A stretch of 20,000 nucleotides of DNA, taken from an uncultured virus (IMG/VR IMGVR_UViG_3300031693_000204). Taxonomy: Duplodnaviria; Heunggongvirae; Uroviricota; Caudoviricetes. The DNA is taken from the IMG/VR virus record IMGVR_UViG_3300031693_000204. One strand, 5' to 3'. How positions within the stretch are numbered: position 1 is the stretch's first letter; each line of letters begins with the position of its first letter. The notes under the pieces were generated by a model, which saw only the letters and a list, made by a program, of their open reading frames with translations, ran no database searches and was not told the DNA's origin. The position numbers and the translations under genes were made by a program. Positions 1,603 through 19,678 of this stretch are shown in pieces.

Positions 1603-1702
1603 ACCCTATCTAGTATTTAGGGTGAGGAAATTATAAAATAAAATTTGGACTAATCGGACACCGGGAAGGGAAGAGTAACGACAACCACATTTGGAGAGAG
1701 AC

Positions 1703-2470
1703 ATGACGAAGCGACAACCTTTACCAACCGAAATTCGTGAACGGGAAACCCCTGTTGATTTCACTGAAACTTTCAAGTGGCAGAAGTCAGTCACTTTTAC
1801 TACTGAAAGTTTCGTGAAGTGGATGGAGCAAAATCTCCCTTCCATCAAGGGCATGACTCCCGGAATGCAAAATGGGATCAAGGTCGGCGACAAACTCTTC
1901 TACTTGAAGTCGCTGCCGATCTGGTACTACACGTCGCACTTCGGATTCTCATTCATGCCAGTTTTGGGAACAATTCCGGCCCGTAGTGGATTGGAAATCT
2001 ACAAAGGTAGGACTGCCGGTTACGCATACTTTGATCAACAAGTCAACATCCCTGTACTTGTCAACAATGACAGAGAACCGTGGATGTCGCTGACCCCGAA
2101 TGAAATTCTTACTCTCCGTGGATCGGTTCGCCGAACGAAGGGCAACGTGGGAATGGCCGGTCTTGGTCTTGGCTGGGTTGCAAGGAAAGTCTTGGAACGG
2201 TCCAAGGTCAAGCACTTGACGATCCACGAAATCGACCAGAGCGTTATCGACCAGTTTGGAAAATCTCTGATTGAAGACTTTGGTGATCGAGTCAAGATCG
2301 TTCACGGCAACGCTTACGAGGCCGACTGGTCATCCTATGATGTGTCTCTGTGGGACATTTGGAAAGACTACGGTGGTGCATCTTGGGACAGCAAGTACAA
2401 AAAGATTCGTGACTCATTGCACAGAGATAACAAAATTTGTATTGGTTGGGGAGAAGGTGTTGGCGCATAG
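1703..2470 (+). CDS. SAM-dependent methyltransferase-like (spermidine synthase-like fold) protein
   Basis: WMSLTPNE...GNVGMAGLGLG (motif I), HLTIHEID (motif II), VKIVHGNAY, YDVSLWDIW. Start moved to ATG 1703 after the GGAGAG SD. Confidence 0.7.
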   Translation: MTKRQPLPTEIRERETPVDFTETFKWQKSVTFTTESFVKWMEQNLPSIKGMTPGMQNGIKVGDKLFYLKSLPIWYYTSHFGFSFMPVLGTIPARSGLEIYKGRTAGYAYFDQQVNIPVLVNNDREPWMSLTPNEILTLRGSVRRTKGNVGMAGLGLGWVARKVLERSKVKHLTIHEIDQSVIDQFGKSLIEDFGDRVKIVHGNAYEADWSSYDVSLWDIWKDYGGASWDSKYKKIRDSLHRDNKICIGWGEGVGA

Positions 2471-2516
2471 GACACCGGGAAGAGAGTCGTAACAACCACA
2501 ATTAGGAGAGACGACA

Positions 2517-2996
2517 ATGCACTGGTCAATTGAAAACGCCAACTTTGCGAACGATCCTCGTGTTCGGGCTGCTCAACGTGGAGCATGGTTCAAGTCTGTG
2601 GACAAGAGCCGGATGCGTGCGGTAGTTTCCTTGCGATGGGAAGATGATGAAGGCGAAGAGTTTGAGAAGGATGTTGAAGTCCCGATCAAGTTCGAGGTTT
2701 GCCAGACTTGTAACGGCAAAGGCACTCACGTCAATCCTTCCATCGACAGCAACGGAATCACGGCGGAAGAGTTTGCCGAAGACCCGGATTTCCGGGAAGA
2801 GTATTTTTCTGGTCGGTTCGATCAGACTTGCAACGAATGTCACGGCGAACGGGTTGTACCCGAAATCGACGAACAATGTGTCAATGAAGAAACTCGCAAA
2901 CTGCTCGATCAGGTGATGGCACAGATTGAGTCTGACCGACAGTTTGAGGCAGAATGTCACGCCGAACACATGGCAGAAATAAGGATGGGAGCATGA
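2517..2996 (+). CDS. Protein with DnaJ-type CxxCxGxG zinc-finger motifs
   Basis: CQTCNGKG and CNECHGER; AGGAGAG SD upstream. Confidence 0.75.
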   Translation: MHWSIENANFANDPRVRAAQRGAWFKSVDKSRMRAVVSLRWEDDEGEEFEKDVEVPIKFEVCQTCNGKGTHVNPSIDSNGITAEEFAEDPDFREEYFSGRFDQTCNECHGERVVPEIDEQCVNEETRKLLDQVMAQIESDRQFEAECHAEHMAEIRMGA

Positions 2997-3250
2997 TGAA
3001 AGCAATGATCGGATTCCAAAGGACAAGTATGATATACATGTCAAACAACGGGACTTGTCTTTGTGACGAACACGTCCGCTCTGGTGGAGCGTACTTGGAA
3101 GCGGAAGTCAGGCAACCCAACAATACCGTGTCAAGTAGGACAACACAAGATGGAGTGGATATCATTAAGACTCCGCTCGATGAATGGTTGTGCCTCACGC
3201 CGGAAATTGCCAAGCAAGAAAACGTCGAATGTGACGTGTGTAACCAATAG
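2993..3250 (+). CDS. Hypothetical protein (85 aa, Cys pairs)
   Basis: ATGA overlap with the upstream stop; CLCxxH and CDVC; ends at a TAG fused to the repeat. Confidence 0.65.
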   Translation: MMKAMIGFQRTSMIYMSNNGTCLCDEHVRSGGAYLEAEVRQPNNTVSSRTTQDGVDIIKTPLDEWLCLTPEIAKQENVECDVCNQ

Positions 3251-3268
3251 GACACCGGGAAGAACATT

Positions 3269-3460
3269 ATGGAAAACAAACTAGGCATTACCCACACACC
3301 TGTTGATAATGGTGGCGTGAAAGAAAATCAATGGGTAATCAAACTCCCTGAGAATTGCGAAGTGGATATTTACGAAGAGTCTGGGACAATAACAATACAA
3401 GGTGGCGAACTGGACCTGAGAATTGCGAAGTGGATATTTGCGAAGAGTCTGGGACAATAA
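3269..3460 (+). CDS. Short hypothetical protein, C-terminus altered by tandem duplication (possible pseudogene)
   Basis: 63 aa ORF whose last ~14 codons come from an out-of-frame second copy of a 68-bp duplication. Confidence 0.5.
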   Translation: MENKLGITHTPVDNGGVKENQWVIKLPENCEVDIYEESGTITIQGGELDLRIAKWIFAKSLGQ

Positions 3461-3483
3461 CAATACAAGGTGGCGAACTGGAC
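3348..3483 (+). repeat. 68-bp tandem duplication (1 mismatch)
   Basis: 3348-3415 and 3416-3483, CTGAGAATTGCGAAG...GGCGAACTGGAC; A3372 vs G3440 differ. Confidence 0.95.
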
Positions 3484-3498
3484 ACCGGGAAGAACATT

Positions 3499-3942
3499 AT
3501 GGAAAATACACGAATGAGTTCAATGAGCGAAGAACAACTGGCACGATTTGGTCAGTATATCGTTGACTTGTTTGGCCTTGTGTCTTTGGATGGCGTGGTT
3601 AGCCACGAAGTCATCGAGCCAATGGTCAACAACGGTTGGTCGCTGGGGCAAGAGAATCCGAAGACCTTAGTTGGTCTGGGTCGAATCATCGTGCGGCTTC
3701 TCAGCAATGCCGTGGAAGCCGACGATCAGATTTTGGGATATGTCCGATTGGATACTCCCAACAACCATGTAGCAAAAGACTTGCTGCTGCAAGCAATTGT
3801 CGAGCTTAAAGCTCGCCGTGAACCAGCGGAAGAGTATGTTGAGAAGCGGTACGAAGGACACACTGACAAGTTCCGTGCCGATAAACTGGTCCAGATTCAA
3901 GAGAAGTTGAGACTTCTTGAGGATGCTGGTATCGAAGTATAG
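3499..3942 (+). CDS. Hypothetical protein (147 aa)
   Basis: ATG 7 nt after the repeat at 3480; ends at TAG-repeat. Confidence 0.7.
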   Translation: MENTRMSSMSEEQLARFGQYIVDLFGLVSLDGVVSHEVIEPMVNNGWSLGQENPKTLVGLGRIIVRLLSNAVEADDQILGYVRLDTPNNHVAKDLLLQAIVELKARREPAEEYVEKRYEGHTDKFRADKLVQIQEKLRLLEDAGIEV

Positions 3943-3967
3943 GACACCGGGAAAAAGGATATGAGAA

Positions 3968-4147
3968 ATGAAAGTTTTATCTTCAACAAAACCGGAGCAT
4001 CTTGAAGAAGATTTGCCGGAACTGGAAAGAGTCAATAAAGAACTAATGACTTCGGACAAACATCCAACTTGGAGTTGGTTTGGCGGAATGATCACGATCA
4101 AAGATCGTGAGTATCAAGTCGCACCAGATCCAACAGACGCAGAATAG
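3968..4147 (+). CDS. Hypothetical protein (59 aa, MKVLSSTKPEHL...PTDAE)
   Basis: Manually translated; fills the interval between two repeats; in-frame TAG fused to the repeat; AAGGA upstream. Confidence 0.65.
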   Translation: MKVLSSTKPEHLEEDLPELERVNKELMTSDKHPTWSWFGGMITIKDREYQVAPDPTDAE

Positions 4148-4160
4148 GACACCGGGAACA

Positions 4161-4403
4161 ATGGCACAAGCACACGTTTGGCACGAAGATGTCACAGACG
4201 AGGACTGGATGGAAGGTCACGGCGAGTCTGGTTTCTTCTGGGATGATGCCGAAGATCATGGCGGATTCGACCGGAATACACCGTGCGGACCTTTCGAGAA
4301 AAGAGAACAAGCCGTCCAAGACGCAACCAAGTGTTTCGGACAAGAGCCAACAATCATCGAAGGTAAACCGGAACGATACGAAGATCATTTCGACCACAAA
4401 TAA
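4161..4403 (+). CDS. Hypothetical acidic protein (80 aa)
   Basis: ATG 2 nt after the repeat; GFFW...PCGPFEKREQA pattern seen in small phage proteins. Confidence 0.65.
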   Translation: MAQAHVWHEDVTDEDWMEGHGESGFFWDDAEDHGGFDRNTPCGPFEKREQAVQDATKCFGQEPTIIEGKPERYEDHFDHK

Positions 4404-4412
4404 GGACAACCA

Positions 4413-4814
4413 ATGAATTTGAATTTCCCAGACAACTTGACGGAAGATGAACAAAAAGAATTCACTTCCGTCAACCTCATTGCTCACAACGTCCTGCGAA
4501 ATGCAGACCCAGACACGCATCATCCGTGCTGGCTTTGTATGAGCGACGAAGCAAAGCAGGAATCCCGTGAAATGGCAGCAACGTGGTACAATTTACACAA
4601 GCGACCTTTGATGCCAGTTGCGGCTGGCACAGAAGACGAAATTTTTCGCTTTGAGAGAGTCCTGTTGCCAATTGCCGGTCCCATGATTCAGCAATGGATT
4701 ATGGCAGAGGCAGAATTCAAACGATTGCGAGTGGAAGAGAATAACCCACGAACATTCTTCGCACCAGCATATGCGTGTCCGTGCGAAGCATGTGAGCGGG
4801 GGGATCGTTTCTGA
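4413..4814 (+). CDS. Hypothetical protein (133 aa)
   Basis: TAAGGA SD; CWLC and CPCEAC motifs. Confidence 0.7.
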   Translation: MNLNFPDNLTEDEQKEFTSVNLIAHNVLRNADPDTHHPCWLCMSDEAKQESREMAATWYNLHKRPLMPVAAGTEDEIFRFERVLLPIAGPMIQQWIMAEAEFKRLRVEENNPRTFFAPAYACPCEACERGDRF

Positions 4815-4966
4815 TGCCTGACGTGCTACCTGTAAATGGCAAAGTCTACTGGGAAGAACGTGGTCTCAAGCCCGTCCTGTACAACAACAGCACAGAAAAG
4901 TACGAGGACGTAGGACACCGGGAAACAGGGCAACGAAACACAATTTTTGTATTGGAGACACGATGA
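4814..4966 (+). CDS. Possible 50-aa ORF or gene remnant reading through a repeat copy
   Basis: TGATG coupling at 4812-4816 and ATGA coupling at 4963-4966; reads the repeat as GHRE. Confidence 0.35.
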   Translation: MPDVLPVNGKVYWEERGLKPVLYNNSTEKYEDVGHRETGQRNTIFVLETR

Positions 4967-5532
4967 AGTTGATTACAAAAGAACACAGTTGGTTGACGGA
5001 TGATGATGCCGGGATTCATTTCTCCCGTCAACAACGACCGTTTTCTCTGGAAGTCAAGACCGTTCCGCCAGCAACCATCACTGCTGTTCGTAATCAGTCT
5101 TGCTTGATTAAACCGCCGACTTTGGAGATCCCAATCTCCGAGTTGGAGTTGTTGATTGCCACTAAGTGTGAGCCTCGTGGCGGGAACACGAAGTGGAACA
5201 GCAACACCATCTGCGGTGCCTACCACTGGAAAAAGATGGGCAAACCCGGTCTGGTGATTTACCAAGTGAACGGCACTGGCAATCACTTCATGTTCATGGA
5301 CCAATTGGAATTGTTTGATTCCTTCACCGAAATCTCAAAGGTGGCAAGCCCAATCGTTGTTTGGGACTTGATTCAGTCTTGGTTCAACGCATACGAGCGT
5401 GGCAGCACTCACTCGCATAATGCAACGAAGACAGAATACACTCAAGCGTTTGTTGATGGAAGACTCAAGAAAAGGAAACACCGAGGTCTCCAGACCTATA
5501 AGGTTTGGATCGAAGAACGAAAAGTTGCGTAA
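4963..5532 (+). CDS. Hypothetical protein (189 aa)
   Basis: TTGGAGA SD; long ORF ending before a repeat. Confidence 0.75.
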   Translation: MKLITKEHSWLTDDDAGIHFSRQQRPFSLEVKTVPPATITAVRNQSCLIKPPTLEIPISELELLIATKCEPRGGNTKWNSNTICGAYHWKKMGKPGLVIYQVNGTGNHFMFMDQLELFDSFTEISKVASPIVVWDLIQSWFNAYERGSTHSHNATKTEYTQAFVDGRLKKRKHRGLQTYKVWIEERKVA

Positions 5533-5599
5533 CCGACTGGACACCGGGAAGCGATGTGTAAGAGAAACTTTCAGTTTGTGTATAATTGAAAGTGTGAGA

Positions 5600-5629
5600 A
5601 CGTCAGGTAAAACTGACGTGCTTCTTTTT
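5600..5629 (+). terminator. Possible intrinsic terminator/attenuator hairpin
   Basis: ACGTCAG-GTAAAA-CTGACGT 7-bp stem followed by GCTTCTTTTT. Confidence 0.4.
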
Positions 5630-5649
5630 CATTAACATTGGAGAACAAC

Positions 5650-6186
5650 ATGTCTAACGTGAAGCGACTTACGGTTGAAGGAAAGTTGCCGTTCAATTGC
5701 ACGGAGAACTATGAACTGCGCCAGTTGCTCGGGCAACTTAATGCTCCGCTGATGGGGATTCGCATCACTTGGGTTGGTTCTGCCGAACACATTCCAAACG
5801 AAGAAACTGGTGGATCAACAGCGATTGTGTATTTCACCATCCACGGAACAGAAGCGGTGAGCTACAAATGGATCGACCACTTGCTGGCGGTAATCGTCAA
5901 TGCTGGCGGCGAAATCATGCTTGCTGAATCTGCCGAAACAGACGAAGGTGCAAACACACTCAAAATAGCTATTCCAGAAAAGTCGAAAACCAAAGGGCAA
6001 GAGTTTGTTTGCCCGGTCGTCTTCAATGTGGAAGACAACGACAAACCATTCGAGTCACACCAACTACGGACATGGTTGGAAGAGGCAGTTTTTGTTGACC
6101 TGCGAACCGAAGATGGAAACTTTGATGCTGGCGAAGACACAACAGTCAGCATGGGACTCGATCTTCAACGACTTGACCCCCGGTAA
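5650..6186 (+). CDS. Hypothetical protein (178 aa)
   Basis: TTGGAGA SD then ATG; ends TAATC-repeat. Confidence 0.75.
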   Translation: MSNVKRLTVEGKLPFNCTENYELRQLLGQLNAPLMGIRITWVGSAEHIPNEETGGSTAIVYFTIHGTEAVSYKWIDHLLAVIVNAGGEIMLAESAETDEGANTLKIAIPEKSKTKGQEFVCPVVFNVEDNDKPFESHQLRTWLEEAVFVDLRTEDGNFDAGEDTTVSMGLDLQRLDPR

Positions 6187-6234
6187 TCGGACACCGGGAA
6201 GAGAGTTGTAACAACCACAACGGAGAAAACAATG
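6184..6234 (+). promoter_or_regulatory. Representative full intergenic module: stop-GGACACCGGGAA-N7-GTAA-CAACCACAA-GGAGA(SD)-ATG
   Basis: TAATC GGACACCGGGAA GAGAGTT GTAA CAACCACAAC GGAGA AAACA ATG. The same architecture recurs at about two dozen junctions. Confidence 0.75.
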
Positions 6235-6666
6235 GACCACATGATGAAATCAGTGACGCTAAATGTCAAGTCTCGAATTACGCCTTTGGTAAAATACGAA
6301 GTCAAGAGACTTCTTGCTGTTCAACACATCGTCGTCAATGGCGGCGGCGGAATGGGCGGAAGTCGTGAACACTTCTACGGTACAGTCACCAAAAGAGGCA
6401 AAGCTGAATCATGGGACACTGACTTTTGGGATGTCAAACTGACGGTCACGAATCGAAAGATTCGTCTCAACCCTGAATACATGGGAAGAGTTGAAGAAGT
6501 CGCTTTGTGGGAAGAGAAGATCACTCACAAGAACGGAAACTTTACAAGTCCTTTGGTGAATCACTTCATTGCTCATGTTGACACGGAATTGAAAGCAGTG
6601 TCAGGACAAAGCCACGAAGACAGTCCCGAAAAGATATTCGGGTTTCTGACAGGATGCAACTTCTAA
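6232..6666 (+). CDS. Hypothetical protein (144 aa)
   Basis: GGAGA SD; bounded by repeats. Confidence 0.75.
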   Translation: MDHMMKSVTLNVKSRITPLVKYEVKRLLAVQHIVVNGGGGMGGSREHFYGTVTKRGKAESWDTDFWDVKLTVTNRKIRLNPEYMGRVEEVALWEEKITHKNGNFTSPLVNHFIAHVDTELKAVSGQSHEDSPEKIFGFLTGCNF

Positions 6667-6723
6667 ACGGACACCGGGAAGAAGGGTAACGAAGTCAACC
6701 CAAAATTTGCATTGGAGACAAAG

Positions 6724-7035
6724 ATGCCAGCGAAAATGGAACAACCTTGGAACGAACGACGGGAAGCATTGTTTGGAGACCTGATCCAACTCACATTGGA
6801 CTTGGATCGTGGCAATGTTCCTCACGTTTCCAGCGACATGAACCACATCTACGTTCACTTTGAAGACGAAGATGGAAAAGACATTGGGCATCTGGCTTAT
6901 GCTAGTGCATTGCACGGTCTTTACAATGATGTTTGGATGTGGGCAGATAGCTCAACCGAATGTGACGACAACGGCGAGCCAGTTGATGATCTGGACATTA
7001 AACAAGCGGTTTGCCTTTCACTCAGAACCCACTAA
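6724..7035 (+). CDS. Hypothetical acidic protein (103 aa)
   Basis: TTGGAGA SD then ATG 6724. Confidence 0.7.
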   Translation: MPAKMEQPWNERREALFGDLIQLTLDLDRGNVPHVSSDMNHIYVHFEDEDGKDIGHLAYASALHGLYNDVWMWADSSTECDDNGEPVDDLDIKQAVCLSLRTH

Positions 7036-7045
7036 AGGATATGAC

Positions 7046-7507
7046 ATGAATACTCACTTGGGAGTCAACTGGCACGAAGACCAACGGAAACACAACTCAT
7101 TCTCAATTCGCATCGGCGGATCGAATGACTTTGTGAGCAAGATCGACCCGGAAGACAAACGAAGCTGTCCTCCCGGAAGCGTGGACTTGGTTGATGGAAG
7201 AAATTATCCAGACGTGATGAAGTTTGGAACACTGGACGAAGCACTGGAAGCTGCCGATCTGGTCTTCTCAATTGAAGGTTTCCACAACAGCATCGAGTCT
7301 GAGCTAGTACCGGACACCGGGAATCCAATTACTGTCGAGCACTTGGAAGTTTACTTCTGCCCTGAGTGGCAAAGTCGAGACGGTAACGGTTTTTGTGTAG
7401 ACAACAGCAATGACTCAACTGGTCATCGCTTCCCCGACAATTTCAGTTGCGGAGCGTTCATCTGCTCGGAACTGGAACGATTAAAGAAAGAAGCGAAAGC
7501 AGCATGA
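7046..7507 (+). CDS. Hypothetical protein (153 aa) containing an internal repeat copy
   Basis: AAAGGA SD; the repeat at 7312 is read as PDTGN; ends KEAKAA. Confidence 0.7.
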   Translation: MNTHLGVNWHEDQRKHNSFSIRIGGSNDFVSKIDPEDKRSCPPGSVDLVDGRNYPDVMKFGTLDEALEAADLVFSIEGFHNSIESELVPDTGNPITVEHLEVYFCPEWQSRDGNGFCVDNSNDSTGHRFPDNFSCGAFICSELERLKKEAKAA

Positions 7508-7887: not shown

Positions 7888-7905
7888 GACACCGGGAAGG
7901 AAGAT

Positions 7906-8283: not shown

Positions 8284-8315
8284 GACACCGGGAAGAGAGT
8301 CGAAAGGAAAACATA

Positions 8316-8537: not shown

Positions 8538-8586
8538 GACACCGGGAAGAGAACTGTAAGAAACAACCACATTCAGGAGACAAAGC

Positions 8587-11294: not shown

Positions 11295-11807
11295 ATGAAT
11301 TTGCTGCTCGCCGAAAAATTGTGCAAACACTTGATGAAAGAGTGGGACATTGACCCAAAGTGGGAGTTTTGCTGGTCAAATGGCAAACGCCAACTTGGTT
11401 GCGTGAAACAAACAAAGCCAGAGTTTGTTGAAATACAGCGTGCCGCTGGTAAGAAAGTTATCAGCAAGCTCTGCCTTTCTCGTCATCTGGTGAGGAACAA
11501 TCCCGAAGATGAAGTGAGAGATACCATCCTGCATGAAATCGCTCACATCAAGGCCGGTCACGAAGCTGGTCATGGTCCGCTTTGGAAACAATGGGCCAGA
11601 AAAGTTGGTGCAAGGCCGGTTCGGTGTGCAACGCAAGTTCTCATGGTGCAAGCCAAGTACATTGTTGTTTGTACCGTGTGTGATTCAGTGACTCGGAAAG
11701 CACACAAGAGAGTTAAGTTGGCAAGACGATACTGCCGAAAGTGTGGAGTCTCTTCTTCTGGCAAGCTCGAACTACGACACAACCCCGAAGCTGGTCAAGT
11801 CAAGTAG
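11295..11807 (+). CDS. SprT-like zinc metalloprotease domain protein
   Basis: KRQLGC...LSRHL...DTILHEIAH...GHGPLWKQWARKVGA plus C-terminal CxxC/CxxC; TAAGGAG SD. Confidence 0.85.
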   Translation: MNLLLAEKLCKHLMKEWDIDPKWEFCWSNGKRQLGCVKQTKPEFVEIQRAAGKKVISKLCLSRHLVRNNPEDEVRDTILHEIAHIKAGHEAGHGPLWKQWARKVGARPVRCATQVLMVQAKYIVVCTVCDSVTRKAHKRVKLARRYCRKCGVSSSGKLELRHNPEAGQVK

Positions 11808-11841
11808 GACACCGGGAAGACAACCGAAAGGACAAAAAACT

Positions 11842-12099: not shown

Positions 12100-12163
12100 C
12101 CGGACACCGGGAAGTGACCTGTAAGAGAAACGAACCTTTTTCAACCACACTGGAGACAAAGAA

Positions 12164-12508: not shown

Positions 12509-12560
12509 GACACCGGGAACAATGGCATGGAAGCCACTAAGCCCAATCGGAGAAAAGAAA

Positions 12561-13106
12561 ATGATACTGCAAAAAGAATCCATCACCAATGCTGCTCGTA
12601 ACTTGATGCTCATTACGGTTGAAAGCGAACTCGAAGATGCTGATGCCGGATGCTCATTGCCAAAGTGGTTTGCAGCAAAGAGATTTGACAAGCCCGATGG
12701 TGAAGGCGAAGTCACTGCTGAAAGCCTTGTCGATGCGATTCTGAAACACAATACTGCGGATGTGATGCTCACGATGGGTATTATCATCGGCAAGATTGAG
12801 AACGCTTGGGGCCACAGTATCGGACTCGTGTTTCATCACATGGGATTCACCGATATTGATGATCAGTCAAGTTTGCTCTACCGCTTGATTATGGGTTGTA
12901 TGGGACACGGAATCTGCCTTGATGATGATGGGCCTAGTGGTCCAGTCGCAATGGGATTCGACAATTCTGGTAAAATCCTCTTAAACATCATAGAGGACAC
13001 CGGGAAGAGATTTGAAGCAAGTCCAGTTCATCTGGACGGCGACGATCCAATCCGTGAACTGATCTCCGAACATCTTGAATATGAGGATACAACATGCACA
13101 GCATGA
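12561..13106 (+). CDS. Hypothetical protein (181 aa) containing an internal repeat copy
   Basis: GGAGA SD (alternative start 12522); the repeat at 12995 is read as EDTGK. Confidence 0.7.
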   Translation: MILQKESITNAARNLMLITVESELEDADAGCSLPKWFAAKRFDKPDGEGEVTAESLVDAILKHNTADVMLTMGIIIGKIENAWGHSIGLVFHHMGFTDIDDQSSLLYRLIMGCMGHGICLDDDGPSGPVAMGFDNSGKILLNIIEDTGKRFEASPVHLDGDDPIRELISEHLEYEDTTCTA

Positions 13107-13561: not shown

Positions 13562-13602
13562 GACACCGGGAAGAGAGTTGTAACAACCACAAGGGGAAAC
13601 AA

Positions 13603-13830
13603 ATGATGCGACTTGGAATGAGGATGTATAACATCCCAGAGTTAAGATTGACTCAAAACTGTACCGAGTGTGGCGAACCACTGAATGATTCGCACATCGG
13701 AACACCGGAAGAGTTGACTGCTCAAGTTCAAGCCGGTTGTTTGGGTGAACCGAAGACTGCTGAAAGATTCACCTGCCCTAAGTGTGGGAGAACGACTCAC
13801 AAAATTGGAGATACAAATGACGACAACTGA
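13603..13830 (+). CDS. Small zinc-ribbon protein
   Basis: CTECG...CPKCG; AAGGGG SD. Confidence 0.65.
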   Translation: MMRLGMRMYNIPELRLTQNCTECGEPLNDSHIGTPEELTAQVQAGCLGEPKTAERFTCPKCGRTTHKIGDTNDDN

Positions 13831-14131
13831 ATTACGATCAGCCGACCCGAACAACACCGACAATCTTGTCGGTTGCTTTGAGGCAAGCGATCAAATGAAT
13901 CACTTCCCGTCTCACTACCAACCAAGTTTACGCTCTCACTTTGAACATGGTCAATGGTGGATTCAAGACACACCAAGTGGCGCAAGTTGGTCCGTCAATG
14001 ATGCCGAAACGAACGGCGAAGAACATTACTGTTTCGAGTTGGTTTCTGAGGGTGACGAAGATTGCTTCCAAGACGACGGCGATGATTACGAAGCTGCCGT
14101 CGAAGACCCGGATGATCCTTTCACTGGATAG
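13817..14131 (+). CDS. Hypothetical acidic protein (104 aa)
   Basis: TTGGAGA SD; ends at TAG-repeat. Confidence 0.7.
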   Translation: MTTTELRSADPNNTDNLVGCFEASDQMNHFPSHYQPSLRSHFEHGQWWIQDTPSGASWSVNDAETNGEEHYCFELVSEGDEDCFQDDGDDYEAAVEDPDDPFTG

Positions 14132-14265
14132 GACACCGGGAAGAGAAGTGTAAGAGTTACTGGTCGCCAACTGCGGATAAGAGACTTTAAGACTCTTTAA
14201 GCAACGTGACTGCGCTCGCTCCGTTCACTCCGTTTACCAACAAAACATAATAAGGAAAACCTCAA

Positions 14266-14433
14266 ATGATGGAAAACCTCGCCTTTGCCTTAGCCGATGC
14301 ACTATTAGGCTATGCCTCCGAACATGGTAGTGTTGACCGCTACATCTCACAACAAAAGTTTGATGCAGTGCTGATGGAATTGAAGAAAGCCAACCCCGAA
14401 CGGTACGAAAAAGAAATTAAACCGTTCCGCTAA
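14266..14433 (+). CDS. Hypothetical protein (55 aa, MMENLAFALAD...KPFR)
   Basis: Manually translated; TAAGGA SD; ends TAATC-repeat. Confidence 0.65.
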   Translation: MMENLAFALADALLGYASEHGSVDRYISQQKFDAVLMELKKANPERYEKEIKPFR

Positions 14434-14484
14434 TCGGACACCGGGAAGAGAAGCGTAACAACCACAATACTTTGGAGAGACAAA

Positions 14485-14799
14485 ATGGCATTCGGATTAT
14501 CTTTTAGCGATGCTTTCTTCAAGCAAGAGGGCGATGACGAAATTGATCCTGAAAACGCCGAATCCGAAATCGGCAACCCCACAAGCGTTTGGCAAGCGTT
14601 GATGTTAAAGACCGAAAAAGAATGGACCGAGATTGCCAAAGAAGTCTTCGACCTTGAAGACGGCGATCAGCTTGATTGCGATATGGTGATCGACAAGATT
14701 CGGGAAACCGACACTTGCACCGACCTTTCATCCCCCGTCCACGTCTATATCGACGAAGAGGGATTCTATACTGTAGACATTTACGATGAGGGAAACTGA
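14485..14799 (+). CDS. Hypothetical acidic protein (104 aa)
   Basis: TTGGAGAG SD. Confidence 0.75.
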   Translation: MAFGLSFSDAFFKQEGDDEIDPENAESEIGNPTSVWQALMLKTEKEWTEIAKEVFDLEDGDQLDCDMVIDKIRETDTCTDLSSPVHVYIDEEGFYTVDIYDEGN

Positions 14800-14817
14800 C
14801 AAATAGGACACCGGGAA

Positions 14818-15078
14818 ATGGCATATCGAGTCAGCGGCAAAGGCCGCAACCAACGAATACAAAAATTGTTGTTTGGCTGCTCCCTGTATAGGAACAGCAT
14901 CATGTGGTACGACGTAGGACCGTATGTGAGGCCCAATCAATTCAATCGGGCATTATGTCTCATGTCCCGCCTTGAACAGCGGGGATTGACCTCTCACTGG
15001 CTCTACGATGCCGCTCGAAATATCGCACAAGACCTGCTGGGAATCGGAGATAAAAAGAAATGGGATACGAAAGGGTGA
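14818..15078 (+). CDS. Hypothetical basic protein (86 aa)
   Basis: ATG directly abuts the repeat. Confidence 0.5.
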   Translation: MAYRVSGKGRNQRIQKLLFGCSLYRNSIMWYDVGPYVRPNQFNRALCLMSRLEQRGLTSHWLYDAARNIAQDLLGIGDKKKWDTKG

Positions 15079-15437
15079 TACCAAGAGACCTATTCAACGA
15101 AGCAAAATTGCTCAAGTGTTTAGGCCAGATGTCGCTTATCATTCACAGTAATGTCGGCATTGACAAATGGCGTTTGAGTATCGAACACGATACCTCAAAC
15201 CACGATGGTTTCAACATCGTCAAGGATGCTGGTTCAGGTGACATTGAATGTAACAACGTCCACGTCTACGTTGCTGGGGAATTGATTCAGTTGACCACTG
15301 GACTCAACAGTCGTCGAGCATATCCTTTGGTGTTTGAAAAGGAAGACGGCAAGGGTGAGATTCACGAAGGATTCGTCTTCGACGATAACGGAGATTTCAC
15401 TGGTGAATTTGTTGCCTACCTCGAAACTATGGAATAG
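15060..15437 (+). CDS. Conserved phage-type hypothetical protein (125 aa)
   Basis: YERVIPRDLFNEAKLLKCLGQ N-terminus recalled from phage hypotheticals; GGAGA SD. Confidence 0.75.
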   Translation: MGYERVIPRDLFNEAKLLKCLGQMSLIIHSNVGIDKWRLSIEHDTSNHDGFNIVKDAGSGDIECNNVHVYVAGELIQLTTGLNSRRAYPLVFEKEDGKGEIHEGFVFDDNGDFTGEFVAYLETME

Positions 15438-15482
15438 GACACCGGGAAGAGAGTCGTAACAACAACCACACAAGGAGAAGCA

Positions 15483-15749
15483 ATGTTTAACCTCGGACAA
15501 ATCGTAGCAACACCAGCCGCACTGCAAGTCTTGGAAAAGAACGGACAAGCCGCTTCCGACTTCATTGAACGTCACCACAACCGAGAACAAGGTGAACTCG
15601 GCGACGAAGACCACCAAGCAAACGACGAATCGGTCAAAGGCAAAGGTCAAATCCTGTCTGTCTTCAAGGCAAAGGATGAAACCAAAGTCTGGGTTATCAC
15701 CGATCCGGGCCATGAAGTGACAACCGTTCTGCTCCCGTCCGACTACTAA
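15483..15749 (+). CDS. Conserved plasmid/phage-associated small protein (88 aa)
   Basis: FNLGQIVATPAA...RH...GEL..ED..AND...ILSVF...VWVITD...TTVLLPSDY, a widespread mobile-element family of unknown function. Confidence 0.8.
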   Translation: MFNLGQIVATPAALQVLEKNGQAASDFIERHHNREQGELGDEDHQANDESVKGKGQILSVFKAKDETKVWVITDPGHEVTTVLLPSDY

Positions 15750-15807
15750 TCGGACACCGGGAAGAGAAATGTAAGACAACCACAACACAAAATTTGGAGA
15801 GAACACA

Positions 15808-16299
15808 ATGGGATGGTCATGTAACCGAGACGCTGGACTGAAACTGGAAGCAATCACTGAGTTTTGCCTCAAGTCAACCGGACTCCAGAACGTCTACATG
15901 GTAGGCAGCAAAAAGTATATGCTCGAAGTGGGCAGGGAACAGGGCGATGGTGCGATTTGTGCCTCGATCTACAAGTACGACGAAAATGGTCGTGTGAAGC
16001 GTTCAGGATCGTTGAGAATCGAAGGCGATGGCGGAATGAGCCGTGGTCCAGCGGTACTCAAGAAAATCGAAGTGCTGTTCTTCGACGTAAACGGACACCG
16101 GGAACGATGGCGTGGAGGGGAAGTGACTCAAGCGAACATTGATGCCCAGATCGCTGACTGGCGTAAGCAATGGGAGCCGGATGGTTGCAACTCCCACATC
16201 GGAGTTAGCGAGAAGACTCGCTTTCCGACTGCCGTTGTTCGGACCTACAAAGGTGAGGTTCTCGGAGAATACAAAACTCCGATGTTCCTCGTCGAGTAG
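15808..16299 (+). CDS. Hypothetical protein (163 aa) containing an internal repeat copy
   Basis: TTGGAGAG SD; the repeat at 16093 is read as GHRE. Confidence 0.7.
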   Translation: MGWSCNRDAGLKLEAITEFCLKSTGLQNVYMVGSKKYMLEVGREQGDGAICASIYKYDENGRVKRSGSLRIEGDGGMSRGPAVLKKIEVLFFDVNGHRERWRGGEVTQANIDAQIADWRKQWEPDGCNSHIGVSEKTRFPTAVVRTYKGEVLGEYKTPMFLVE

Positions 16300-16348
16300 G
16301 ACACCGGGAAGAGGATTGTAAGACAACCACAACACTTTGGAGAGAACG

Positions 16349-16669
16349 ATGAATCAACCTTTAGTTTGGACAGAGTATCTGATTACTCCCGATGCAGCAA
16401 TGCAAAAACTCGCTCAAGATGCTGTCGATGTGCAAAATGCCTGTAACGGAACAGCCGTTTCCGGCCTGCTCAATCGAACAATGTCTGCTCTGATGAAAGA
16501 GAAAAAGGGCAGCGATTACGTCAACCAGCATCCAATCGTGCAAGCAATCATTGATAAACTGCAAAGCCTTGCGAAGATACCACAATCAGGTACGTCAATG
16601 TTCCACATTCATTGTATGGAACTCGCCGAAGGGAACTGTGTTACCGTCAACATAGTGCCAACAGCATGA
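16349..16669 (+). CDS. Hypothetical protein (106 aa)
   Basis: TTGGAGAG SD then ATG. Confidence 0.7.
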   Translation: MNQPLVWTEYLITPDAAMQKLAQDAVDVQNACNGTAVSGLLNRTMSALMKEKKGSDYVNQHPIVQAIIDKLQSLAKIPQSGTSMFHIHCMELAEGNCVTVNIVPTA

Positions 16670-16916
16670 AGTATATCATCGTGAAAGACAGGGAAGACGA
16701 AGAACATGCAATCGTCTTCCCTGATGAAATTATCCACAAGGATGTGGCTCGGATTCATCGAGCTACCGACGTTCGTTTCATCTCAGCCGGTTTCTGCAAT
16801 CTGGAAACACTACAATGCTGGGGAAAAGCGAATCACTCAACAGAGAATCACGTCCCGAAGAGGATTCACAAGTCTTGAAGAAAGACTTCAATCGGACACC
16901 GGGAAGTGAAGCGTAA
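16666..16916 (+). pseudogene. Small phage-type protein with probable 1-bp frameshift at GGGGAAAA (16820-16827)
   Basis: MKYIIV...VFPDEIIH...ISAGFC...CWG continues plausibly as KSESLNRESRPEEDS if one base is added; as given, it stops at 16878. Confidence 0.5.
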
Positions 16917-16940
16917 CAACAACCACAACGGAGAAACGAA

Positions 16941-17165
16941 ATGGGAACTGGGAACTGGGTAGTCATTGAACTAATCAACGGAGTTATCACGAAGTGTCTG
17001 GATTACTTCGACCGCACTAAGGACGAAGTTCTGAATTGTGCCGTTGAGTTGGCAATGGAAAATAATTACCAACATGGTCGCAACGATGCTCTTGATATCA
17101 TCAACGATGCTGGCGTGCTGCACATCACTTCAACGTGTTCGGTTTACATCACTACCGCTAATTAA
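16941..17165 (+). CDS. Hypothetical protein (74 aa)
   Basis: GGAGA SD. Confidence 0.65.
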   Translation: MGTGNWVVIELINGVITKCLDYFDRTKDEVLNCAVELAMENNYQHGRNDALDIINDAGVLHITSTCSVYITTAN

Positions 17166-17173
17166 GGAAACTC

Positions 17174-17356
17174 ATGTCTTCTGCAATACGAATCACACTT
17201 AACACCGATCCAAACCAAGACATTGCCAAAACGAGAATCGAAGTAGGCAAACACTTGCATGAACTCGCTGATCGACTCCAAAAGGGTGAATACATTGGCC
17301 GATTCGTGCTGGGAAAAGGCGAAAACAAACTGAGTGGGGATGTTGACGAACTATAG
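17174..17356 (+). CDS. Hypothetical protein (60 aa)
   Basis: TAAGGA SD; ends at TAG-repeat. Confidence 0.65.
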   Translation: MSSAIRITLNTDPNQDIAKTRIEVGKHLHELADRLQKGEYIGRFVLGKGENKLSGDVDEL

Positions 17357-17401
17357 GACACCGGGAAGAGAGTTGTAAACAACAACCACTTGGAGAAAAC
17401 A

Positions 17402-17743
17402 ATGGACCACTTCATCGAGACTTTCAAAGGCAAAGGCAGCAACCTAGTCATTACAGTTGATGCTGATGAACAAACCGAACTCAAGGAATTGCGAGAAGAC
17501 GAAGAGTCTTTCTTTCACTCCGATCAGACAATGCACGATCAGCTTGAACCACTGACCTGCAATTCCGAATTGAATTTCGTCGATCCAGCCGACACTGGCG
17601 ACTTGACCGATGCTCCAATGCTCGGAATACTTGACGAAGATGATAAGATCGTCAACCGATGGGCGTTTATGGACTATCAAGTTCGATCTCTGCTGGATGA
17701 CCTTGCCGACAAAGGGCGAGCGGTGTTAGTTGGTGGCAACTAA
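17402..17743 (+). CDS. Hypothetical acidic protein (113 aa)
   Basis: TTGGAGA SD; bounded by repeats. Confidence 0.75.
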   Translation: MDHFIETFKGKGSNLVITVDADEQTELKELREDEESFFHSDQTMHDQLEPLTCNSELNFVDPADTGDLTDAPMLGILDEDDKIVNRWAFMDYQVRSLLDDLADKGRAVLVGGN

Positions 17744-17795
17744 CCGGACACCGGGAAGAGAGTTGTAAGAACAACACAAAATTTGGAGAGAACAA

Positions 17796-18224
17796 ATGAG
17801 CGACATCGACCAAACCAGATTCAATGCCTTATGTGATGTGGTAATCTATCACTTCTGCGACCTGATGCACAAAGCCGGGGATGAAAACAGCAAATCGGCC
17901 AAACTGCTCGTCGAACAAAATGTGATGGAAGATACAGAAAATGGCGAAGCAGCGTACACCGAGTACGAAGAATTGCTTGTCGAACATGCTCTGGCTGAAT
18001 TGCCTGATGGATTCAGTAAGACTTACGACTACTGGGGCGCACCTTGTATCAGCAACAAACAAGGATGGAATGCTCCAAAACATGACAATCCCGAAGGCGA
18101 TAGAGTGTTCTTCGCTGGTGACTCAACCAGAATCATGTTCTTTCAGAATCACGAAGCTCTGGTAGAATACACTACCGAGAAAGTTGCCGATGCTGAGTGT
18201 CCACCAGCATCGTTGCTGGACTAA
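17796..18224 (+). CDS. Hypothetical protein (142 aa)
   Basis: TTGGAGAG SD; bounded by repeats. Confidence 0.75.
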   Translation: MSDIDQTRFNALCDVVIYHFCDLMHKAGDENSKSAKLLVEQNVMEDTENGEAAYTEYEELLVEHALAELPDGFSKTYDYWGAPCISNKQGWNAPKHDNPEGDRVFFAGDSTRIMFFQNHEALVEYTTEKVADAECPPASLLD

Positions 18225-18274
18225 TCGGACACCGGGAAGAGAGTTGTAACACCGACAATCACTTGGAGAGAACA

Positions 18275-18499
18275 ATGAAACTTATTGTGCGTGATGGAGA
18301 TGAATTTGTATTAGAAACACCTGCTGGCGATGTGCGGATCAGTTACGATAAACCCGATCAAGAATCAGCCCCGCAGTTGGAGTTGGTTTTTGCCAAAGAA
18401 ATCACATGCAACGCATGGCCGGATAGCAAGGGCATCCTTGTAATTCGCAGAAACGAGCCTGTTGTTTCCGAAGCGACACAAATCGTAGTATGTTTCTAA
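18275..18499 (+). CDS. Hypothetical protein (74 aa)
   Basis: TTGGAGAG SD then ATG 18275; bounded by repeats. Confidence 0.7.
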   Translation: MKLIVRDGDEFVLETPAGDVRISYDKPDQESAPQLELVFAKEITCNAWPDSKGILVIRRNEPVVSEATQIVVCF

Positions 18500-18551
18500 T
18501 CGGACACCGGGAAGAGAGTTGTAACAACAACTAACATTTTTAAGGAACTCT

Positions 18552-18848
18552 GTGATGTTTGGAAGAACTCAAGTTGGAGTCGATAAGGAACTCGTTCTCT
18601 CAATGAGAATGAAACGTATTGTGAAAGGTGGAAAATTTCACAACCTATCACGATTTTGGGAAACAACCACAATTTGTGGAAGTGACCGAAAAGGTGAAGA
18701 GTGGGCCGATGATCGACAATTCGATGATGTGGACGGGAAAGACATTTGCAAAAAGTGTTATGAACTCGCTGGAAGACCACAAAAATTGATCTTCAGGGAT
18801 GAAGACGTTTGGCGTGATGAAATCAAAAAGTTGGATTTTGTGGCCTAA
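18552..18848 (+). CDS. Hypothetical protein with putative Zn-binding motif (98 aa)
   Basis: H...TICG...ICKKC; TAAGGA SD. Confidence 0.7.
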   Translation: MMFGRTQVGVDKELVLSMRMKRIVKGGKFHNLSRFWETTTICGSDRKGEEWADDRQFDDVDGKDICKKCYELAGRPQKLIFRDEDVWRDEIKKLDFVA

Positions 18849-18896
18849 TCGGACACCGGGAAGAGAGTTGTAAGACAACCACACTTGGAGAGAACA

Positions 18897-19244
18897 ATGA
18901 CAACTGTACCAACAGAACTAGCAAGACACGTTGCCGACAATCCCGATGGATGTGATGCTGATGATCTGGAAAAGTTCATCAACTATGTCGGTCAAGGTGA
19001 CAAGCCAGCACCACAAGCCGCTGCAATCTGGCCGAACAACGAAGTTGAAGCAATTGAGGGATATTCTCACCAACTTGACCATGACACAAATCGTGTTCGT
19101 GTTGTTGTCCTGATTCGTGACTACTGCCGTCGATCAGTCAAGGCAAGAGCATTGCGAAGCGATGGACAAGTGCAACGTGCTTTGAACCTTGAACAAATCA
19201 ATGACCGAATTCACGATGTGTTACCAGTCTGGGCAAGATGGTAA
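18897..19244 (+). CDS. Hypothetical protein (115 aa)
   Basis: TTGGAGAG SD; bounded by repeats. Confidence 0.7.
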   Translation: MTTVPTELARHVADNPDGCDADDLEKFINYVGQGDKPAPQAAAIWPNNEVEAIEGYSHQLDHDTNRVRVVVLIRDYCRRSVKARALRSDGQVQRALNLEQINDRIHDVLPVWARW

Positions 19245-19294
19245 ACCGGACACCGGGAAGAGAAGTGTAACAACAACCACTTGGAGAAAACAAA

Positions 19295-19624
19295 ATGATC
19301 TACAAAGTTCAGTTGCTCGCTAACAATCCTGATGACTGGGAAAACCCTCGACCAGTTGAAGTGCCAGACAATGAAGTTGTTGAATATGGCAAATCAGTGA
19401 TTGGATTGCTCGAAAGAATCTTCTATTGGGGACAAAATGATTTCCAACCTCGACAATGCTGTTCAGTCAGCATGGGCGATGTAGCGGAAATTCCCAATGG
19501 TGACACCATTCGTTACTATATGTGCAAAGGGTGTGGCTGGGAAGAGATTTCCGCCGAAGACCTTGAAGAGTACAAAAAGATTCCACAACGTGACCGAACA
19601 TTCTCAGAGTATGTGCGAGACTAA
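19295..19624 (+). CDS. YodL-like domain protein
   Basis: LERIF..GQN...SVSMGDV...YYMC...GWEEI resembles the YodL-like LExIF..N...SLSVSDVV...YYVD..GF pattern. Confidence 0.55.
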   Translation: MIYKVQLLANNPDDWENPRPVEVPDNEVVEYGKSVIGLLERIFYWGQNDFQPRQCCSVSMGDVAEIPNGDTIRYYMCKGCGWEEISAEDLEEYKKIPQRDRTFSEYVRD

Positions 19625-19678
19625 CCGGACACCGGGAAGAGAGTTGCAAGACCAGTAAACCACTAAACGGAGAAAACG

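Follow-up and report, generated by a model that had tools for sequence, protein, structure and literature searches.

An invariant, polar 12-bp element heads the small genes of a marine phage and marks junctions of gene exchange: a probable core of a phage-specific promoter

Introduction

What is the role of a 12-bp sequence that recurs, invariant and always in the same orientation, throughout an array of small phage genes? The question is raised by the window studied here, i.e., the whole stretch of 20,000 nucleotides, for which a sequence-only reading had proposed an undescribed kind of gene-module system: a single polar element would express or control many accessory genes of a phage or mobile element and might also serve as the junction for their gain and loss. 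We analysed the number, polarity and anatomy of the copies of this element, compared the array with those of related phages, and weighed the functions that could explain its features.

Results

A polar motif array in an uncultured marine phage

The window derives from a marine phage that has not been cultured. A metagenome contig of 106 kb matches it, and a contig of 125.8 kb carries an identical helicase. No RNA run is listed among the sequencing runs that contain the stretch. The phage origin that had been suspected is borne out by genes resembling those encoding PAPS reductase, HNH/endonuclease VII and SprT, which lie amid ORFans, and by the marine origin of the metagenome contigs. The 12-mer GGACACCGGGAA is present in 39 exact copies from 1656 to 19638, all on the + strand (exact-match count), which is far above chance: 0.01 copies are expected, and 39 were reached in none of 200 shuffles. 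Near-copies on the + strand are restricted to two with one mismatch (324 and 1029) and none with two, and on the - strand of the window no site comes closer than three mismatches. The copies are spaced by 205-814 bp (mean 473). According to our own ORF calling (45 ORFs in the window), the units that they delimit contain one gene start in 29 cases, two in 8 and none in 2. An all-versus-all BLASTP of the 45 products (E<=1e-3) revealed no paralogous pair, so the description of the units as harbouring one or two unrelated genes holds, apart from the two units that have no start.

The polarity of the motif extends beyond the window. Motif and genes are co-oriented for 39/39 copies here and in all 24 metagenome contigs bearing at least two copies, and a composite of two contigs carries ~108 copies across ~47 kb, every one of them on the gene strand. 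This mapping, which the sequence-only reading had put forward as a check, supports its view that one polar element heads many genes. In L035, 8.4 kb past the array end, a search of both strands found no motif. Another exact motif lies ~208 nt upstream of the first base of the window (position 10001 of contig Ga0209402_10000091, i.e., L066, whose position 10210 is window base 1). The sole long minus-strand gene of the window, the HNH/endonuclease VII-like one, is placed between a degenerate copy of the motif and the first exact copy (Table 1), and its 3' end replaces the leader of the degenerate copy. Few cassette genes match a family; the SprT-like gene is one that does. The motif also precedes an AAA ATPase gene and, in a UvrD-like helicase gene that is split in two, each of the halves, one motif unit being cleanly placed between them. 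The element is thus not special to accessory genes, contrary to what had been supposed.

Table 1. Coordinates of the array, of representative motif copies and of neighbouring genes in the window.
Feature	Position	Strand	Details
PAPS-reductase-like gene	1..1029	+	phrog_424, 1.2e-25; PF01507
HNH / endonuclease VII-like gene	988..1602	-	phrog_1035, 5.1e-19; HNH families below Pfam cut-offs
Degenerate motif copy GGACACCGGAAA	1029..1040	+	1 mismatch; overlaps the stop codon (TAG) of the PAPS-reductase-like gene
Motif array, each copy heading 1-2 small genes	1656..19638	+	39 GGACACCGGGAA copies, 0.01 expected
Tandem 69-bp duplication ending in the 3480 motif	3347..3483	+	Self-matches 3347-3415/3415-3483, 98.6%
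Copy with ATG 2 nt past motif	4147..4163	+	ORF 4161-4403
Copy inside ORF 6872-7507	7312..7323	+	Next gene start 7504, 192 nt on; frame open 470 nt upstream, 196 nt downstream
SprT-like gene	11295..11807	+	PF10263, 2e-11
Motif with ~597 bp extra in L005 and L021 (different samples)	11807..11818	+	Contig comparison
Copy with ATG 2 nt past motif, same type as 4147	12508	+	ORF 12522-13106
Copy inside ORF 12522-13106	12995..13006	+	Next gene start 13094, 99 nt on
Copy with ATG at offset 0	14806..14820	+	ORF 14818-15078
Copy inside ORF 15808-16299	16093..16104	+	Frame open 318 nt upstream, 207 nt downstream
Typical unit head	17741..17798	+	Stop TAA + CC, 12-mer 17746-17757, conserved G, then leader
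Typical unit head, 3' part	to 17798	+	Leader GAGAGTTGTAAGAACAACAC.., GGAGAG ribosome site, ATG 17796 (ORF 17796-18224)
Two cassettes missing from Ga0302123_10000321	18279..18840	+	Alignment blocks overlap 62 nt (motif + leader)

The head of each unit combines stop codon, motif, leader and start codon

The window displays a repeated intergenic cassette layout, in which a stop codon is followed by the motif, a leader with GGAGA and an ATG. A stop codon is found 0-4 nt ahead of the motif start in 29/39 copies (ORF table), either as a TAG whose G also belongs to the motif (16), as TAA followed by YC (12) or at +4 (1), and five further copies start 7-20 nt past a stop codon. On the other side, the shared leader GAGAGTYGTAA(C/G)AACAACCACA..GGAGA, in which GGAGA is the ribosome site, leads to an ATG in 26/39 copies, at 33-62 nt counted from the start of the motif. 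This agrees with the earlier statements that most copies sit at a gene end and start a shared leader with a Shine-Dalgarno sequence. In eight copies the ATG is nearer, at 12-26 nt on the same count, and five have a long leader or none, three of them being inside ORFs (7312, 12995 and 16093).

The same anatomy is observed among distinct motif instances, where a stop codon is at the 5' edge in 163/226 and an ATG follows the motif after 33-44 nt in 120/219 and after 0, 1, 2 or 7 nt in 19/219. The sequence logo reveals a conserved element made of a single contiguous, asymmetric 12-mer, followed by G in 203/226 instances and preceded by A at -4 (173/226) and -3 (205/226), and conservation of the leader extends well past the 12-mer. 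The A-rich positions 5' of the 12-mer are kept even when there is no stop codon. The extended motif can be written as (T)AAYC or RTA, then GGACACCGGGAA, then G-A/T-G-A-R. Folding of the motif and leader (39 segments, 60 nt each) showed no RNA structure above that of shuffles (mean z -0.05), inverted repeats and hairpins included, in line with the reported lack of a long attC-type palindrome, and the element matches no Rfam family.

Gene exchange between relatives has its boundaries at the motif

The repeat marks the junctions of gene exchange, since between two lineages ~90% identical 16/23 distinct events of indel or replacement restart within 15 nt of the motif start. Both sides are within the motif or leader in 12 of the 23 events and boundaries are away from the motif in 7; one event (Crc 1745->4555) is probably spurious, produced when a paralogous cassette was chained. 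The left ends of homology blocks are within 15 nt of the motif start in 64/93 cases (8.5% under the null) and the right ends at -15 to +70 of the motif in 56/98 (23% under the null), counts that rest on metagenome assemblies and support the view that genes are gained and lost, as had been proposed, and also replaced, with boundaries at the element; they place the boundaries without demonstrating a causal role of the motif, because gene-sized indels must fall between genes and every gap holds a motif. Inside motif and leader, the block ends vary from +4 to +55.

Assemblers can jump between repeats of 50-70 nt, so variants present in a single contig may be chimeras. Four variants are present in two or three contigs. 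These are the extra sequence at 11807 (L005 and L021), where homology stops at +12 of the motif and resumes at -2, the deletion of 13336-13558 (L021 and L050), and two variants in the Crc part (one in L087/L037/L092, the other in L092/L035). Contig Ga0302123_10000321, which is 99.9% identical to the window at 3561-18278, lacks the next two cassettes (Table 1). The units at 3250 and 3480 have a common motif-to-ATG head, GAACATTATGGAAAA. Joints of Logan contigs were considered as candidates for excised mini-circles, which in T4-type phages form between neighbouring PeSL cassettes (see Discussion). Their sides, all 20-31 nt long, lie inside the repeat, and these joints are hence inseparable from assembly-graph effects.

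Discussion

A promoter fused to a leader

From this anatomy we infer that the 12-mer is probably a promoter core, invariant and specific to the phage, that is joined to a standard leader. The element has the traits of promoters of single-subunit RNA polymerases (T7/Syn5 class), which span ~15-23 bp, being contiguous, asymmetric, co-oriented with the genes and followed by a conserved purine that would be the initiating one. The distances to the ATG, either 0, 1, 2 or 7 nt or 33-44 nt, fit an RNA whose 5' end is at the 3' edge of the motif. No other recurring transcription signal was found that could serve the ~45 genes of the window, where neither sigma-70-like sites (23 vs 18.9 +/- 3.6, only 7 of them on the + strand, each 9/12) nor intrinsic terminators (26 vs 20.2 +/- 4.7) are enriched. 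The promoter of Syn5, given as ATTGGGCACCCGTAA followed by G, is identical to the motif at 9/12 positions, in register including the +1 G (PMC3950665, PMC11880802); the chance of such a match in a fixed register is ~4e-4 by hand calculation, and several promoter classes and registers were compared, so the match is no more than suggestive.

The polymerase reading the 12-mer is most likely encoded by the phage. With slightly less than even confidence, we favour a single-subunit enzyme of the Syn5/T7 class; most of what is left within the promoter reading goes to the polymerase of the host, redirected by a factor of the phage. The ~60 kb examined, which include ~30 kb of the 106-kb contig, contain no gene for an RNA polymerase, a sigma factor or an activator, and no ORF of polymerase size or likeness is found in these ~30 kb and in the array parts of the relatives. 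Some features speak against a promoter. The T7 promoter has TATA just before the start, whereas GGAA, the last four bases before the start proposed here, is less A+T-rich. A promoter alone does not require a stop codon at its 5' edge, as seen in most instances. Finally, a genome with more than 100 promoters would by far exceed the published averages, ~13 per genome for T7-like phages and 2 for every Syn5-like record (PMC11880802).

If the motif is a promoter, transcription would start at or beside the conserved G just past the 12-mer. Its main product would be an mRNA with an unstructured leader of ~35-45 nt and the GGAGA ribosome site, and a minority product would be almost leaderless; the mRNA from the copy at 14806 would have no leader at all, provided that its first base is immediately 3' of the motif. 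The promoter-leader, 30-60 bp long and present in more than 100 copies of one orientation, would also offer homology for recombination, and genes could therefore be gained, lost and replaced as motif-to-motif units, a process for which no dedicated recombinase would be required. Homologous recombination would most simply be the route of exchange, and nothing points to a dedicated recombinase.

Alternative functions of the motif

The 12-mer might act at the level of RNA, as the target of an endoribonuclease or of an RNA-binding regulator in a polycistronic transcript, and thereby cut a long RNA into units or jointly switch off the early mRNAs, functions for which RegB and RegA of T4 are precedents. 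The place of the motif between stop codon and leader in most units, the conservation of the leader well beyond the 12-mer and the lack of enrichment of any other promoter-like signal are in favour of this hypothesis, and the ATGs 0-2 nt past the motif also fit a 5' end made by cleavage. We nevertheless regard an RNA-level site as unlikely. The motif and leader show neither structure nor covariation expected of an RNA element, nor an Rfam match, the A-rich bases 5' of the 12-mer are conserved even without a stop codon, and the Syn5-like register and the conserved G fit recognition of DNA. Moreover, the three copies inside ORFs are harmless to a promoter and awkward for a cleavage site, because cleavage there would destroy the message of the upstream gene.

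Two DNA-level functions were also considered. An operator of the stoperator type would account for sites that are many, asymmetric, nearly identical, in a single orientation relative to transcription and placed in short intergenic gaps. It is nonetheless decidedly improbable: a roadblock needs neither a constant position at the start of a leader, nor the following G, nor a bimodal distance to the ATG, the more than 100 invariant copies are several times the number in L5, and the ~60 kb examined contain no repressor, integrase or other lysogeny gene or module. We give very little credit to the motif being a dedicated site for a site-specific recombinase or homing system, integron-like and with expression as a secondary matter, even though the motif is where boundaries of gain, loss and replacement cluster, one unit cleanly separates the two halves of a helicase gene and an HNH endonuclease gene adjoins the degenerate copy. 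Such a site would have to do without inverted-repeat or hairpin architecture and without an integrase or recombinase in the ~60 kb examined; the motif also heads conserved replication genes, the block ends vary as in homologous exchange instead of marking a fixed crossover, and the PeSL cassettes discussed below, as they have been described, give the same pattern without a recombinase (PMC2839356).

A bolder and rather doubtful extension of the promoter reading is that more than 100 identical minimal promoters drive the entire early and middle programme of a large, uncultured marine phage. They would be served by an RNA polymerase of the phage itself, Syn5-like in specificity but of an undescribed class, and each gene would have its own message, sometimes leaderless. 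The promoter-leader would then also be a portable 'plug' with which any incoming gene could be installed, expressed and later swapped, and which could even split genes, and the whole would make an integrase-free, self-expressing cassette system. The density of promoters would, to our knowledge, be the highest for any phage-polymerase system.

Comparison with known systems

Stoperators, found in Cluster A mycobacteriophages (L5 gp71), serve a temperate phage as repressor roadblocks. They are, like the motif, asymmetric sites (~13 bp) in many copies, with one orientation and in short intergenic spaces, but they have no link with a leader or a start nucleotide. The attC sites of integrons, which are imperfect palindromes, fold as single strands that an integrase recombines, and most of their cassettes lack a promoter. 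Integrons share with our array the co-oriented small unrelated genes and a recurring separator where cassettes come and go, whereas the motif has no palindrome and looks like a promoter itself; an attC array was rejected on the basis of the folding results and of the lack of an integrase in the ~60 kb examined. The start-associated sequences (SAS) of Cluster K mycobacteriophages, GGGATAGGAGCCC, are also asymmetric repeats at the scale of 13 bp, found in one orientation and in the non-structural half of the genome only, and sometimes overlap the upstream stop codon; they include the Shine-Dalgarno core and precede the start codon by 3-7 bp (PMC3203893), whereas the motif is mostly 33-44 nt before the ATG and apart from the GGAGA site.

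Promoters of the Syn5 class also come from marine phages and resemble the element studied here in being short, uninterrupted and asymmetric sequences of 15-17 bp that point the same way as the genes; they are followed by an initiating G, here a putative one, and a purine-rich start region (PMC3950665, PMC11880802). They differ in number, with 2 per genome (~13 in T7-like phages) against more than 100 here, roughly one per gene, and in genomic context, since the genome is at least 106-126 kb here and the reported coordinates of Syn5 promoters reach ~44.8 kb only.

A close parallel in the organisation of genes is provided by the PeSL (promoter-early stem-loop) cassettes of the T4-type phages phi1 and RB49, which have 52 and 51 copies per genome (Arbiol et al. 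2010, PMC2839356). Both elements are intergenic and lead from an upstream stop codon through the promoter, here a putative one, to a ribosome site and the next start codon; both are present in tens of copies per genome, concentrated in hyperplastic regions ahead of ORFans; and in both the ends of insertions, deletions and replacements between related phages fall in the cassettes. PeSL-like sequences even occur between the split g43A/B cistrons, as a motif unit does in the split helicase. The PeSL is described as a bipartite sigma-70 promoter, used by the host polymerase, with a stem-loop terminator, whereas the element studied here is a contiguous, invariant 12-mer without a -35/-10 pattern or stem-loop, is more uniform (two one-mismatch variants vs 39 exact copies) and, with ~108 copies in the composite array, reaches about twice the number. 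Since PeSLs are already known as cassettes that shuffle genes from promoter to start codon (PMC2839356), the claim of an undescribed kind of system does not stand, whereas the sequence of the motif itself and its type of element, non-sigma-70 and hairpin-free, appear to be undescribed.

An array of co-oriented motifs and small genes

The window contains 39 copies of the 12-mer GGACACCGGGAA, all of them on the + strand, against 0.01 expected from dinucleotide shuffles, and the distance from one copy to the next is 205-814 bp (mean 473). Two + strand variants differ from it by one mismatch; there are no two-mismatch copies on that strand, and the closest approach on the - strand has three mismatches. 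No pair among the 45 ORFs called on the + strand is related at E<=1e-3. The array is real and striking, and the sequence-only reading was right to describe perfect co-oriented copies separating units of this size, each with unrelated genes. The few recognisable genes of the window are phage-like, i.e., PAPS-reductase-like, HNH/endonuclease VII-like (on the opposite strand), and SprT-like. A tandem 69-bp duplication ends at a motif, and the two units concerned have an identical motif-to-ATG head and identical first codons, which looks like the footprint of unequal exchange between adjacent units.

Coordinates of features of the motif array in the window and on related contigs
Feature	Sequence	Coordinates	Strand	Remark
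Exact motif copies, first to last	window	1656 to 19638	+	
One-mismatch motif variants	window	324; 1029	+	within a gene; at a gene end
Motif copies inside open reading frames	window	7312, 12995, 16093	+	n=3
Region with HNH/endonuclease VII-like gene	window	988-1655	-	between one-mismatch motif (1029) and first exact copy (1656)
Tandem 69-bp duplication	window	3347-3415 / 3415-3483		its end is the motif at 3480
Units with identical heads	window	3250 and 3480		
Apparent unequal exchange	window	3250-3510		
Unit with long leader	window	5539-5650		
Hairpin followed by T-run	window	5600-5619	+	in the long leader
Motif with extra sequence in two contigs	window	11807		
Two cassettes missing from a contig	window	18279-18840		
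Split UvrD-like helicase	L066 (contig Ga0209402_10000091)	4152-6297		
Six larger genes behind one motif copy	L015 (contig Ga0209362_1004941)	107-7027		
Paralogous cassettes	contig Ga0209501_10002273	799-1243 and 4555-5012	reverse	
Array-end hairpin	contig Ga0209501_10002273	18620-18770	reverse	
Array-end hairpin	L035 (related contig)	6080-6230		
Different 12-mer of a distant relative	L142 (IMGVR_UViG_3300020577_007233)	191-2218		five copies

Anatomy of the motif and its leader

The upstream stop codon lies 0-4 nt from the motif in 29 of the 39 window copies (ORF table): a TAG stop shares its G with the first base of the motif in 16, TAAYC (TAA plus two bases) stands directly 5' of it in 12, and one copy begins 4 nt after the stop. 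A wider collection, which adds related contigs to the window and numbers 226 distinct instances, carries a stop codon at the 5' edge in 163 cases. An A is present at -3 in 205 and at -4 in 173, which is wider conservation than the stop codon would require. Directly 3' of the 12-mer comes a G (203/226), followed by A/T-G-A-R-T-Y-G-T-A-A; a C/A-rich stretch then extends to the ribosome site GGAGA and the ATG. Distances to the ATG are bimodal: of 219 instances, 120 have it 33-44 nt away and 19 at exactly 0, 1, 2, or 7 nt; the ATG-distance analysis found no qualifying ATG in 23 instances. Two of the copies inside open reading frames stand 192 and 99 nt before genes lacking a motif of their own.

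The motif-leader segments fold no better than shuffles (mean z -0.05), searches returned no Rfam family and no tRNA or tmRNA, and neither sigma-70-like sites nor intrinsic terminators exceed background in the window. In 21 orthologous pairs, leaders show no greater conservation than coding sequence (89-92% versus 90%). One unit has a 99-nt leader, measured from motif end to ATG, which contains the only convincing + strand hairpin and T-run of the window. The HNH/endonuclease VII-like gene has the look of a free-standing homing endonuclease that entered a motif-leader unit, and on its own strand it is preceded by an A+T-rich region with TATAAT.

Extent of the array

Window bases 1-19865 correspond, at 99.99-100% identity, to the end of contig Ga0209402_10000091 (106,117 bp). 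On its upstream side the array goes on for 9.5 kb or more past the window, and there the motif heads genes for an AAA ATPase, a 355-aa protein, and a UvrD-like helicase. The latter is encoded by a 501-aa and a 198-aa gene parted by one stop-motif-leader-ATG unit, and the split is clean, because an unsplit 743-aa homologue reads continuously across the junction (...VG/MKTAVLGRTN...). Among database homologues, about 50 with 40-80% identity share the split length; in six IMG/VR relatives at a greater distance the helicase is unsplit, and a 125,786-bp contig carries the identical helicase protein.

Downstream, a 20.3-kb contig whose overlap with the window end is 88.5% identical holds 57 further motif copies, a 39.5-kb contig bridges the two, and the composite array has about 108 copies across about 47 kb. 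It ends at a long perfect hairpin (GCCCAGC..GCTGGGC), after which the variant GGACACCGGGGG runs into a G-run/C-run hairpin with a T-rich tail, and then come convergent genes. The two hairpins might terminate transcription as a pair; alternatively, a variant promoter might produce a short structured RNA here. The 8.4 kb past this end, mostly opposite-strand genes, have no motif on either strand. On the related contig L015, one motif copy precedes six larger genes, including those for an AAA ATPase, a zinc-ribbon protein, an ArdC-like anti-restriction/metallopeptidase protein, and a T4-type RNA ligase, and a GmrSD_N-like gene follows the next copy; the group looks like an early counter-defence operon. 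Since six genes stand behind a single copy, the signal is per transcription unit, and motif density is greatest where genes are small.

Relatives and habitat

A 17-mer scan of metagenome contigs matched 119 stretches. At least two motif copies were present in 24 metagenome contigs, each in one orientation only; the remaining metagenome matches were single and at chance level, as were three single-copy loci in IMG/VR, and the 32 single-copy matches in GTDB genomes are about what our own arithmetic predicts by chance. Besides three possible source samples, at least half of the sampled words were found in eight DNA runs from eight studies, all marine or seawater metagenomes; there was no RNA run among those listed as containing the stretch.

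Among INPHARED phages, the window has no megablast match, the 60-nt motif-leader has chance-level matches only (E >= 0.4), the ATPase has none, and the helicase reaches 25-30% identity at most; the PAPS reductase is closest to that of Pseudoalteromonas phage KB12-38 (38%) and has no relative in IMG/VR. The helicase profile retrieved 51 IMG/VR loci at <=40% identity (<=36% for matches over 250 residues), none of which has a comparable array, the top 12-mer count being at most 10. One of these distant relatives, the 257-kb record L142 (helicase identity 36%), has its own different 12-mer, GGCTAGACTTTC, repeated within 2.2 kb ahead of small genes, a possible counterpart of the motif in another lineage.

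Gene exchange at the motif

Two lineages about 85-92% identical were tiled across the array. Over all pairwise alignments, homology blocks have their left end <=15 nt from a motif start in 64 of 93 cases (null 8.5%) and their right end at -15 to +70, within the next motif-leader, in 56 of 98 (null 23%); these ends do not count as independent events. When distinct events between the lineages are counted, 16 of 23 restart <=15 nt from a motif start and seven do not, in agreement with the earlier suggestion that the motif may also be the junction at which genes are gained and lost, with the limit that gene-sized indels necessarily fall between genes and every gap has a motif. Both sides lie in a motif or leader in 12 of the 23. 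A paralogous cassette, 79% identical to its partner, has probably produced one of the events as a chaining artefact; this pair lies outside the window and is the only one seen in the wider array. Window sequence comprising two cassettes is missing from an otherwise 99.9%-identical contig, the flanks overlapping by 62 nt of motif-leader, and about 597 bp are added at another motif in two contigs from different samples. The scatter of block ends, from +4 to +55, fits homologous exchange inside a shared promoter-leader and not a fixed crossover.

Short-read assemblers can jump between such repeats, and Logan contigs break and join exactly there. Every listed Logan joint, from four DNA runs, lies in a motif or leader with a shorter side of only 20-31 nt, and we therefore discarded these joints as independent evidence of rearrangement, taking them as repeat-induced contig ends or joins. 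Repeats that break or mis-join short-read assemblies matter to anyone assembling these phages.

A candidate phage promoter

The signal is contiguous, asymmetric, and strictly polar, is followed by a conserved G, and comes with neither RNA structure nor a competing promoter signal. For these reasons we favour, with some reserve, the reading of the motif as a phage-specific promoter. The larger share of that probability goes to recognition by a phage-encoded, probably single-subunit polymerase, and the smaller remainder to the host polymerase with a phage factor. Transcription would start at the G just 3' of the 12-mer, giving a leader of about 35-45 nt with the ribosome site in the main class and leaderless mRNA in the 0-2-nt class. 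On the part of the genome that was read, a stoperator-like operator seems to us an unlikely alternative.

The promoter of marine cyanophage Syn5 is reported as 15 bp, ATTGGGCACCCGTAA, with a +1 G (PMC3950665; PMC11880802 Dataset S1), and its last 12 bases, aligned in the same register, are identical to the motif at nine positions. At a fixed register such a match has a chance of about 4e-4, calculated by hand; several promoter classes and registers were compared, and for that reason we treat the likeness as a lead. A search for PF00940 in the fragmentary records of five distant relatives gave no match, and control genomes were equally silent. As for numbers, predicted promoters average about 13 in T7-like phages, and the Syn5-like records of the same dataset paper list two (PMC11880802); a copy number far above known cases is the main quantitative oddity of the promoter reading.

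If the motif is a promoter, a marine phage would add a new pair, very short and highly specific, to the polymerase-promoter pairs of Syn5, KP34, and VSW-3, which have already been made into RNA-synthesis tools. The motif would also tag the early-expressed ORFans, more than 100 in each genome and more still across lineages, and it is among early ORFans that host-takeover and anti-defence genes tend to be found. The principle of the promoter-early stem-loop (PeSL) cassette, a repeated expression signal turned seam for shuffling phage accessory genomes, would then also apply under another transcription system and in phages that are unrelated and uncultured, which would suggest that this principle is general and needs no recombinase.

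Comparison with known systems

The 12-mer was not found in the full text of the literature, the sole match being an unrelated human-gene paper, and a general-term search gave nothing pertinent among the matches listed. An attC-like site was rejected for want of a palindrome, and the start-associated sequence of Cluster K for its wrong distance to the ATG and the lack of a Shine-Dalgarno core in the motif. Among known systems, the PeSL cassette of T4-type phages comes nearest; it is described as running from a stop codon through a promoter and a ribosome site to a start, in about 52 copies per genome, placed ahead of ORFans and with a role in modular shuffling (PMC2839356). By analogy, the motif element appears to work like a PeSL but is not one, because two defining features were looked for and are lacking: the PeSL has a sigma-70 promoter, whereas the motif element has no sigma-70-like enrichment, and the PeSL has a stem-loop, whereas the motif-leader does not fold above shuffles. 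The proposal of an undescribed system consequently holds in part: a repeated expression cassette doubling as a recombination seam is a known kind of system, but this type of signal appears to be undescribed, and it is unusual in how uniform its copies are and how many there are.
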